Below are positions 58,935-60,574 of a stretch of DNA of 64,000 nt, piece after piece. Under the pieces are notes generated by a model. It was given only the letters and a program-made list of their open reading frames with translations, was not told the DNA's origin and ran no database searches. Both the position numbers and the translations under genes were made by a program. Where the stretch lies: the sequence record PZ179883.1; one strand, 5' to 3'. Every line of letters starts with the position of its first letter. The first letter of the stretch is position 1. This DNA comes from a phage.

Positions 58935-59714
58935 TTAATTAAAAATATATACTTCATCAGTTCCATTCTTTTCTTTGGAATGATATATGTTAAAGACGTA
59001 TTTTTTATTAAGATGCTTAACATTATATTTTTTAGACCATTCTTTAAGAAGAGTGTTTTCCTTTCCGTGATGCTCTAAAACATTCGACAGTCCAAATTTT
59101 ATTCCTCTGTCATTTAAAGAATCTAAAAGATTTAAAAGGTCTTTTTCTTCTTCTTCTGACCAAAATTTATTATAATCAGCAACTGTTATAAGATATGGAG
59201 GGTCCACATATACAAAATCGCCGTCTAGAATTTTGACATCTTTAAAATGCAATGAACTAAAGATTATTTTATCACAATTTTGTTTAAAGTGATTAAAGCG
59301 TTTTTCACTATTTTTGTTTATAGTTCTTTTTCCAAACGGAGTAGTAAAATTTCCTTTATCGTTTATACGAATCATATTACTAAACCCGTGAAAATGAAGA
59401 ACATAAAGTAAAAGAGGATCTCTAGTTTTATTATAATCTTCACGTAATTTCAAAAACTCTTCTTTTGATGTTTTTGATAGTTTGTATTGCTTTATTACTT
59501 TTAAAACGTCATCCCATGATACATTAATAAGACGCTTATACATTTCAATAATTGGTTCTTGAATATCATTGGCCAATACAGGACCATTGACGTTCAAAGA
59601 CACTGATAAACCTCCACAAAATAAATCCACGAATCTGTCATATTTTGGAAAATGAGGCTTAAGTTCAGGTAATAATGACTGTTTATTACCTGTATACGCG
59701 ATAGCTCCTAGCAT
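58935..59714 (-). CDS. dam: DNA adenine methyltransferase (GATC-specific Dam)
   Basis: 259-aa ORF with FCGG AdoMet-binding motif and DPPY catalytic motif; matches T4 Dam. Confidence 0.9.
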
Positions 59715-60274
59715 TATATTCTCTCATTTATTGCAGCAAAAAACGAATTATATAATTCTTCATCATATGTATTTGATAGTAATACTAACACGTTTTGTGA
59801 TTTAGCATATTCATTAAACCTTGCTTGGATGGTTGGATTATCAGTAAATGATTCTCTTTTTGTCCATTTATTACGTGGATAATATCCGCATGGCAAAAAA
59901 TCTAATATCATCAATGACACAGGGTTTTCAGTTTTTGTGTATTCTTTTAATTTCTCTTTATCTTCTAAATATATTCCAACCGAATCAATAGCTGTACCTC
60001 CACCAACTTGGTGTTTAATTTCAATTATATGCTTTTTACCGTTGCGAGAAATAACAATATCAAATCTTCTAGTACGCTTCTTAGTTATAAAATTAGAACA
60101 AAACAAATTATTTGATTTTTCAGTATCATCGGTTAAAACCATTTTTTCTTGATAACTAACTGAACAATCAGTGAAATATTCTTTTACTTTATTAAGTATG
60201 AAATTTTCAACTACGGCAGATATTTTATATGAATCTCCGTTTAAAGCCATTTCATGCACAATTTTATTAATCAT
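59714..60274 (-). CDS. hypothetical protein with PD-(D/E)xK-nuclease-like motif
   Basis: 186-aa ORF with GAGGA RBS and its own early-promoter motif; [19 protein letters not shown] has the D ... ExK spacing. Confidence 0.5.
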
Positions 60275-60302
60275 TATATCATCCTCAGCAATTTATTTTA
60301 TA

Positions 60303-60331
60303 ATACCATAACAAGCTGAGAAAGTAAACAA
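60303..60331 (-). promoter_or_regulatory. early promoter upstream of the 186-aa nuclease-like ORF
   Basis: Minus strand: GTTTACT, 17 nt, TGGTATTAT. Confidence 0.5.
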
Positions 60332-60373
60332 ATTTATGAAATTTGTGATAAATATTAATTTAAAGGAGGACAT

Positions 60374-60574
60374 ATGGCACAAAAATTAATGGCACTTGTT
60401 AATGCCATCAAAGGTAATAAGAAACGTATAGCTTTTACTATTTCTGCTATGGTAGGAATTTTACTCTGGAACTTTATTTTATCACCAATTGCAATTGCGC
60501 ATGGTGTTAATATTCCAGTAGTTACTCTTGATACATTCGTAGATCTAGCATTTGCTTTAGTTGGGTTAATTTAA
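60374..60574 (+). CDS. small membrane protein (plus strand)
   Basis: 66-aa ORF with AAGGAGG 4 nt before the ATG; two hydrophobic helices; convergent with gene 61 and overlapping it by 4 nt. Confidence 0.4.
   Translation: MAQKLMALVNAIKGNKKRIAFTISAMVGILLWNFILSPIAIAHGVNIPVVTLDTFVDLAFALVGLI

Follow-up and report, generated by a model that had tools for sequence, protein, structure and literature searches.

A restriction-endonuclease-like gene coupled to dam in T-even phages

The window analyzed here is a 64,000-nucleotide Tequatrovirus stretch (sequence record PZ179883.1), and its interval 59000-61600, which was compared with phage genomes, holds a small gene paired with dam. An earlier note on this DNA had described a 186-amino-acid minus-strand open reading frame (ORF) between dam and gene 61, and the frame is present as described. 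This gene, ORF186 (59714..60274, minus strand), encodes a predicted PD-(D/E)xK, type II restriction-endonuclease-like protein. The adjoining dam gene (58935..59714, minus strand) encodes a D12-class N6-adenine (GATC) DNA methyltransferase (Pfam PF02086, expect value (E) 6.5e-51) that is 100% identical to T2 Dam and 97.7% identical to T4 Dam. The ORF186 promoter, ORF186 and dam make up a cassette (58895..60362, minus strand), with boundaries drawn by blastn against T6 and RB32. The conserved right-hand flank is gene 61, for DNA primase (60571..61599, minus strand), and between it and the cassette lies ORF66 (60374..60574, plus strand), a gene for a putative small membrane protein of 66 residues that is convergent with gene 61, with overlapping stop codons. 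The phages vB_EcoM-CHD2BS1 and JB75 are 99.4% identical to the window over the compared interval.

ORF186 aligns end to end with PHROG 8706 (phrog_8706, E 5.7e-116), a family with no assigned function, and full-length homologues can be followed down to 29% identity. Conservation across genera rules out a chance ORF, and no named T-even homologue of non-nuclease function occupies the position. A model of ORF186 was built with AlphaFold2 on the family alignment, with a predicted local distance difference test (pLDDT) value of 79 and a predicted template modelling (pTM) score of 0.79, and it arranges the chain in the order alpha-beta-beta-beta-alpha-beta. Foldseek matches to this model are all PD-(D/E)xK nucleases, the best over the whole chain being MunI (template modelling scores of 0.59/0.56), and the structural neighbours comprise the alpha branch and the CCGG-type framework. 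Two other assignments were considered and rejected. A CARF-type effector was suggested by matches to Can2, Card1 and NucC, which reflect the shared nuclease domain, given that the 186 residues hold no sensor domain. A MutH-like nickase was set aside, given that MutH is not the closest structural match, which places ORF186 outside the MutH/Sau3AI type.

The earlier note had read a D...ExK spacing in ORF186 as that of a PD-(D/E)xK nuclease. The predicted structure does have the restriction-endonuclease-like fold, so that reading survives on the side of the fold, and the motif proves to be the invariant core of the family in nine homologues. In the alignment of these nine sequences (29-63% identity), E23, D72, E85 and K87 are invariant, as are H88-Q89 and G93-T-A-I-D-S98. 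E23 is placed on helix 1, D72 on strand 2, and E85 and K87 on strand 3. The model therefore has both the PD-(D/E)xK core fold and the residues that define it, with a conserved aspartate on strand 2, ExK on strand 3 and an acidic residue on helix 1, and the four residues are proposed to be catalytic. On the model and the alignment, ORF186 is predicted to be a PD-(D/E)xK, restriction-endonuclease-fold protein that has the fold of type IIP restriction enzymes and, by analogy, may act as one. It shares with the MunI/EcoRI branch (alpha class, type IIP PD-(D/E)xK) the order of secondary structure elements, with the aspartate on strand 2 and ExK on strand 3. However, its sequence identity to MunI is only 12%, and the motif that follows ExK is GTAIDS, unlike that of EcoRI and MunI, where the recognition motif after ExK is GNAxER.

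Profile searches give weak matches that consistently point in a similar direction. Across seven family members, the Pfam DpnII profile was matched in five (best E 8.3e-5) and the BanI profile likewise in five; for ORF186 itself, the BanI match has an E of 0.0093. The PADLOC REase_II profile was matched at an E of 9.1e-5. One GenBank record, that of phage Shinka, carries the automated label "putative DpnII restriction endonuclease", and the other records read "hypothetical protein". No sequence-level match to chains of the Protein Data Bank was obtained, either with the ORF186 protein or with the family profile, and an NCBIfam search returned noise only. The DpnII profile matches accord with the structural neighbours, because the GATC enzyme MboI has also been placed in the CCGG-type framework by a review of type II enzymes (PMC4081073).

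The family is small and tied to phages. A HMMER search of 1.84 billion representative proteins gave only 11 matches to ORF186, two of which (P0016 and P0017) are weak and repeat-type and were disregarded, and word-seeded searches of 5.8 billion proteins gave 10-12 relatives. No recognizable bacterial restriction-modification (R-M) gene was among the relatives in these protein searches, and a profile built from nine diverse sequences of the family turned up neither bacterial relatives nor a bridge to DpnII. Those relatives with examined context are all in T4-like phages. Two further entries are chimeras in which an ORF186 fragment is joined to an unrelated domain, epimerase-type (PF01370) in P0008 and asparagine synthetase-type in P0010; these are most likely assembly artefacts and were left out of the alignments.

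In every locus examined, a D12 methylase gene lies directly downstream of ORF186, with stop and start codons that overlap or are at most 13 nucleotides apart. The loci compared were the window, L006, L007-L011, L012, L013, T2, Klebsiella phage KPV15 and Dhakavirus MX01. The earlier note had left room for a nuclease unrelated to the GATC methyltransferase, an option that this constant adjacency contradicts. The pair has been found at three genome positions: between genes 61 and 56 in Tequatrovirus, Dhakavirus, L006 and L007; two genes downstream of denB in the Jiaodavirus KPV15; and directly upstream of rIIA in L013. Among five relatives, identities of nuclease and Dam to the window proteins are 63/71, 55/72, 43/62, 35/54 and 41/52%, and the two proteins diverge in parallel. 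Between the window and MX01, ORF186 is 64% identical, as compared to 62% for the primase gp61 and 69% for gp56. ORF186 is therefore as conserved in MX01 as the essential primase, suggesting long vertical residence under purifying selection. In short, a nuclease gene beside a methyltransferase gene, the two inherited together, is the arrangement of a type II R-M system, and it is what ORF186 and dam present.

The distribution was counted in a phage genome collection, with records of Tequatrovirus type. The junction of ORF66 and gene 61 occurs in 507 records, and dam is present in 184. By tblastn, ORF186 is present at 80% or more of its length in 155 records, six Klebsiella phages included, and dam, ORF186, ORF66 and gene 61 are colinear in 146-147. 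ORF186 is carried by about a third of T4-type coliphages, T2 among them; it is found in approximately 80% of the Tequatrovirus genomes that carry dam, and about two thirds of Tequatrovirus genomes are dam-less. T6 and RB32 have neither gene, with approximately 40 base pairs (bp) in place of window positions 58895-60362 and an annotated order of 56, dam.1/ORF030w and 61. Phages were seen with both genes, with neither (T6, RB32) or with dam alone, and ORF186 was not found without the methylase in any genome examined, whereas the methylase often occurs without ORF186. The pattern is that expected of R-M pairs decaying to orphan methylases.

The T4 genome preserves what appears to be a record of this decay. 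T4 keeps dam and lacks window positions 59802-60341, and its alignment blocks overlap by eight bases. The endpoints coincide with the two copies of an 8-bp direct repeat, TTTGTGAT, at 59794..59801 on the left and 60342..60349 on the right, and the T4 state is a 548-bp microhomology deletion between them. T4 thereby lost the promoter together with ~158 codons from the start of ORF186, and the final ~28 codons persist as a scar. Because most of ORF186 was removed in this way, T4 Dam can be viewed as the orphan of an R-M-like pair, and the sequences suggest that it descends from a phage-borne R-M pair. Other stages of loss can be seen: ORF186 is partial in KarlGJung and is split into two pieces in G4500 and ERS-1. 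In T2 (L015 2001-2546, and L019), loss of one nucleotide in a T-run changes the last seven residues to LQ, such that the product has 181 residues, ends in ...NSFLLQ and stops 13 nucleotides before the dam ATG, uncoupling the stop from that start codon. The 1988 T2 dam entry (M22342) includes ORF186 sequence upstream of dam, unannotated, and has an extra frame break near codon 38 that is possibly a sequencing error. Frame breaks in the T2 sequence may explain why the ORF was not annotated.

Presence or absence between conserved genes is also a property of mobile endonucleases. ORF186 might then be a site-specific homing endonuclease encoded by a free-standing gene, like the seg and mob enzymes, that would spread into relatives lacking the cassette, with dam hitch-hiking, all the more so as the region is known for SegF-mediated marker exclusion and segF adjoins gene 56 in T4. 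Several results make this very unlikely. No examined genome has ORF186 alone, but dam alone does occur; T4 is "empty" through a microhomology deletion inside ORF186 and offers no clean empty site; the two genes travel together and occupy three loci; and divergence between genera equals that of flanking core genes, fitting vertical descent. In addition, a Pfam search of ORF186 found no GIY-YIG or HNH motif, and the predicted fold is PD-(D/E)xK. A homing endonuclease of the seg/mob type was accordingly dropped as a candidate, since GIY-YIG and HNH motifs are missing and the absence of ORF186 goes with that of dam (T6, RB32) or stems from an internal deletion or a frameshift (T4, T2).

The signals around ORF186 would suit a coupled gene pair. 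In the window, the ORF186 stop codon overlaps the dam ATG in the sequence TAATG. The earlier note had given ORF186 its own ribosome-binding site and early-promoter motif; the former is present as a Shine-Dalgarno sequence, GAGGA (60282..60286, minus strand), read from the sequence seven nucleotides 5' of the ATG. The promoter fares less clearly. A sigma-70/T4-early-type motif, TTTACT-17-TATTAT with an upstream TG (TG-extended), lies 5' of ORF186 at 60300..60328 on the minus strand, and the JB75 record has a promoter feature annotated at the equivalent position, but a generic scan found six promoter sites as compared to 8.3 expected from shuffled sequence. The promoter is therefore rated as plausible, and without statistical support, because scan sites are no commoner than in shuffles. 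A further element, a hairpin with a U-run that resembles an intrinsic terminator (60386..60411, minus strand), lies downstream of gene 61 and antisense to the 5' end of ORF66. It has an 11-bp stem followed by UUUUUGUG, with a folding energy of -12.4 kcal/mol (z -2.7), and could end gene 61 transcripts ahead of the ORF186 promoter; the plus-strand form of the palindrome could affect translation of ORF66.

Translational coupling could also reflect a fixed stoichiometry, as would suit an ORF186 with a non-cleaving role, for example in binding DNA as a regulator or in acting as a partner of Dam, or an ORF186 that tells strands apart by their Dam marks as a MutH-like nickase. Some PD-(D/E)xK proteins are indeed regulators or nickases, and loss of the nuclease is tolerated in T4 and others. 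We give this explanation little credence, given that the full catalytic set, E...D...ExK, is invariant in the family and that nothing points to an interaction of ORF186 with Dam.

ORF186 and dam are instead interpreted, with slightly better than even confidence, as a phage-borne, type II R-M-like cassette. The early promoter would drive a bicistronic ORF186-dam message, and the overlapping stop and start codons would couple translation of ORF186 and Dam. ORF186 would be a compact endonuclease of the MunI/EcoRI branch of PD-(D/E)xK enzymes, probably an Mg2+-dependent homodimer that uses E23, D72, E85 and K87, and would cut a short site that is blocked by Dam methylation (N6-methyladenine), most likely GATC or a site containing GATC. 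Phage DNA would be shielded by its own Dam, and perhaps also by glucosylated 5-hydroxymethylcytosine (hmC). Unmethylated DNA in the same cell would be cut, whether from co-infecting dam-less T-even relatives, other phages, plasmids or a Dam-negative host, and the Dam-methylated host chromosome could not be a target. Loss of the nuclease gene would leave a harmless orphan dam, as in T4. The nuclease activity, recognition site, methylation sensitivity and biological target are what we infer; the predicted fold, the invariant residues, the adjacency to dam, the movement of the pair as a unit, the presence/absence pattern and the T4 deletion are observed.

The frequency of GATC was compared to a maximal-order Markov expectation for tetranucleotides, both in the whole 64-kilobase window and in T6 (positions 1-50000). 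In the window, GATC is the rarest relative to expectation of all 256 tetranucleotides, with an observed/expected (O/E) ratio of 0.35 (z -13.6), and the next lowest O/E is 0.63. Such avoidance fits long-term pressure from GATC-directed nucleases on T-even genomes, and it holds despite the glucosylated hmC of T-even DNA. Among 6-bp palindromes, the EcoRV site GATATC is also rare in the window and T6 (16 observed, 43.5 expected, O/E 0.37).

A number of points weigh against an R-M-like cassette that acts on GATC. T6, which lacks the cassette, has a GATC O/E of 0.33, the strongest avoidance of any 4-bp palindrome, and GATC avoidance was therefore dropped as a discriminator for ORF186; it is known in other enterobacterial phages as well, with MutH/Dam effects as a possible cause. 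The recognition site has just two grounds, the neighbouring methylase and the sub-threshold similarity to DpnII. The Pfam DpnII match (PF04556; E 0.0045; 16.8 bits with a cut-off of 23) spans positions 152-235 of a 278-position profile, such that ORF186 fails the gathering threshold for that family, and ORF186 has 186 residues as compared to ~280 for DpnII. Confidence in the model is low in the loops at 91-93 and 129-131, which flank conserved motifs and may contact DNA. Host DNA in enterobacteria carries Dam methylation already and would be spared by a DpnII-like enzyme, and DNA with glucosylated hmC resists most type II enzymes, making the cutting of co-infecting T-even DNA uncertain. Mutants of T2 and T4 in dam are viable, which speaks against self-restriction of unmethylated hmC DNA, although this argument is limited in that T4 lacks ORF186 and T2 has a C-terminal frameshift in it. 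Finally, a nuclease-first gene order is unusual for the safe establishment of an R-M system.

The methylation state of the host leads to a different proposal, in which Dam methylation does not hold ORF186 back from degrading host DNA, and might even be required, as it is for DpnI. Cytosine-containing, Dam-methylated host DNA would be cut, glucosylated hmC would protect the phage, and the linked Dam would finish the methylation of host sites or have some other function. Because the hosts (Escherichia, Shigella, Yersinia, Salmonella and Klebsiella) are Dam-positive, only an enzyme of this kind could attack their DNA; early expression of ORF186 would match that of denA and denB; according to the T4 record, Dam methylates DNA whether it is modified or not; and the KPV15 pair is located two genes downstream of denB. 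We nonetheless regard this proposal as quite unlikely. A tight, translationally coupled pairing of nuclease and methylase is a hallmark of methylation-sensitive R-M, EndoII and EndoIV of T4-type phages already do the job in question, and the 186 residues hold no extra winged-helix domain for reading methylation. The profile similarity is to DpnII rather than to DpnI, and DpnII cleaves only unmethylated GATC (PMC4081073).

A bolder version of the R-M-like cassette, which seems unlikely, makes it a weapon between T-even phages. In mixed infections it would cut the GATC sites of Dam-unmethylated relatives, even in hmC DNA, would exclude their markers, and would copy itself into these relatives by T4-type break-induced recombination, as a form of methylation-gated homing. 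If true, this would give a function to the long-unexplained T-even Dam and would help to explain GATC avoidance in genomes that are largely protected from host restriction by their DNA modification.

The pair resembles several known systems in part. Like the DpnII/MboI family (PF04556), ORF186 is partnered with a D12 Dam-class GATC methylase, and its catalytic core resembles the family profile, weakly but recurrently. It differs in being ~100 residues shorter, in the order of nuclease then methylase, and in that its gene resides in virulent hmC phages rather than in bacteria. The orphan Dams of phages such as T4 and the Slopekvirus KP15 are the same methylase, but the window Dam has a conserved nuclease partner; the KP15 Dam, 57% identical to that of the window, stands alone. 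Homing endonucleases of the SegF type are, like ORF186, variably present between conserved early genes and next to gene 56, and ORF186 could similarly favour its own inheritance in mixed infections. Unlike them, ORF186 has a predicted PD-(D/E)xK fold, is always accompanied by a methylase, and has no clean, nuclease-only empty site.

No publication on ORF186 or ORF66 was found in the literature on T-even/Tequatrovirus restriction enzymes, DpnII in T4-like phages, T2 dam or dam.1. The comparisons suggest something new, namely an R-M-like pair resident in virulent, hmC-modified T-even phages, with T4 Dam as its orphaned remnant. The Dams of T2 and T4 are textbook "orphan" methylases, and to our knowledge no clear benefit of these Dams to the phage has been established apart from protection against P1 restriction. 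The nuclease partner in T2 and in most dam carriers, together with the T4 scar, would recast Dam as the surviving half of an R-M-like pair, opening the old question of its purpose to simple, direct tests. An uncharacterized and very small (186-residue) restriction-enzyme-like family is added as well, and the T4 reference genome turns out to hold a conserved gene for a small membrane protein that is unannotated.

That gene is the T4 form of ORF66. The earlier note knew of no T4 counterpart at this position; this stands for ORF186, of which T4 retains ~28 codons after the 548-bp deletion, and ORF66 is intact in T4. The T4 homologue has 66 codons (NC_000866 17738-17938) and lies within the 310-bp gap between dam and gene 61, where no coding sequence is annotated; the remainder of the gap is the 3' remnant of ORF186. 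The earlier claim of a plus-strand ORF with a strong ribosome-binding site is borne out, with ORF66 being a real gene that matches phrog_2024 (E 1.6e-31), occurs in 507 of 507 matching records and has the Shine-Dalgarno sequence AAGGAGG (60363-60369, plus strand). These records include T6 and RB32, where it is named dam.1 and RB32ORF030w, respectively, and where dam and ORF186 are absent; its presence without the cassette rules out ORF66 as a cassette member and places it outside. It is likewise intact in T2, T6 and RB32, and MX01, L006 and L009 have positional homologues of 63-66 residues that are convergent with gene 61. The homologues share the conserved core F..WN...P.A..G..P.VT, and among five Tequatrovirus alleles, seven variable codons are synonymous and six have conservative changes.

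Of the two transmembrane helices once proposed for ORF66, hydropathy gives one clear helix (approximately residues 19-43) after a basic N-terminus, and the C-terminal hydrophobic segment, with two aspartates, is marginal as a second. The sequence is read as that of a small inner-membrane protein. Upstream of the Shine-Dalgarno sequence, GATAAATA (60347..60354, plus strand, ~20 nucleotides 5' of the ATG) matches the T4 late-promoter consensus TATAAATA at seven of eight positions. All of the homologues have a strong AGGAGG Shine-Dalgarno sequence and an ATAAATA-type motif ~20 nucleotides upstream: nATAAATA in five phages, CTAAATA in L009/L010, a perfect TATAAATA at the same distance in L006, and AATAAATA in RB32 and T6. 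Because of this TATAAATA-like motif, late transcription is suggested, and ORF66 is probably expressed late. In T6, ORF66 starts with ATT instead of ATG (L005 1512-1514), and the T6 annotation begins at Met6; in Shinka (L002 2875-3071), ORF66 is split by a frameshift and unannotated.

The neighbourhood of the cassette varies in other ways. The dCTPase gp56 (58356-58889) is 71-73% identical to gp56 of T2 and T4, yet 82% identical to its homologue in the divergent contig L006, and the Dam and gp61 beside it are 98-100% identical to those of T2 and T4. This is a sharp mosaic boundary that adjoins the cassette. No segF was found near gene 56 in the window, where a small soc.2-like ORF (58156-58356) lies beyond gene 56. 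On the far side of the primase gene, the ORF at the 61.2 position (61767-62123) has 118 residues, as in RB32, where it is annotated as "similar to gp61.2", as compared to 208 residues for T4 gp61.2; it is another length polymorphism of the early region.

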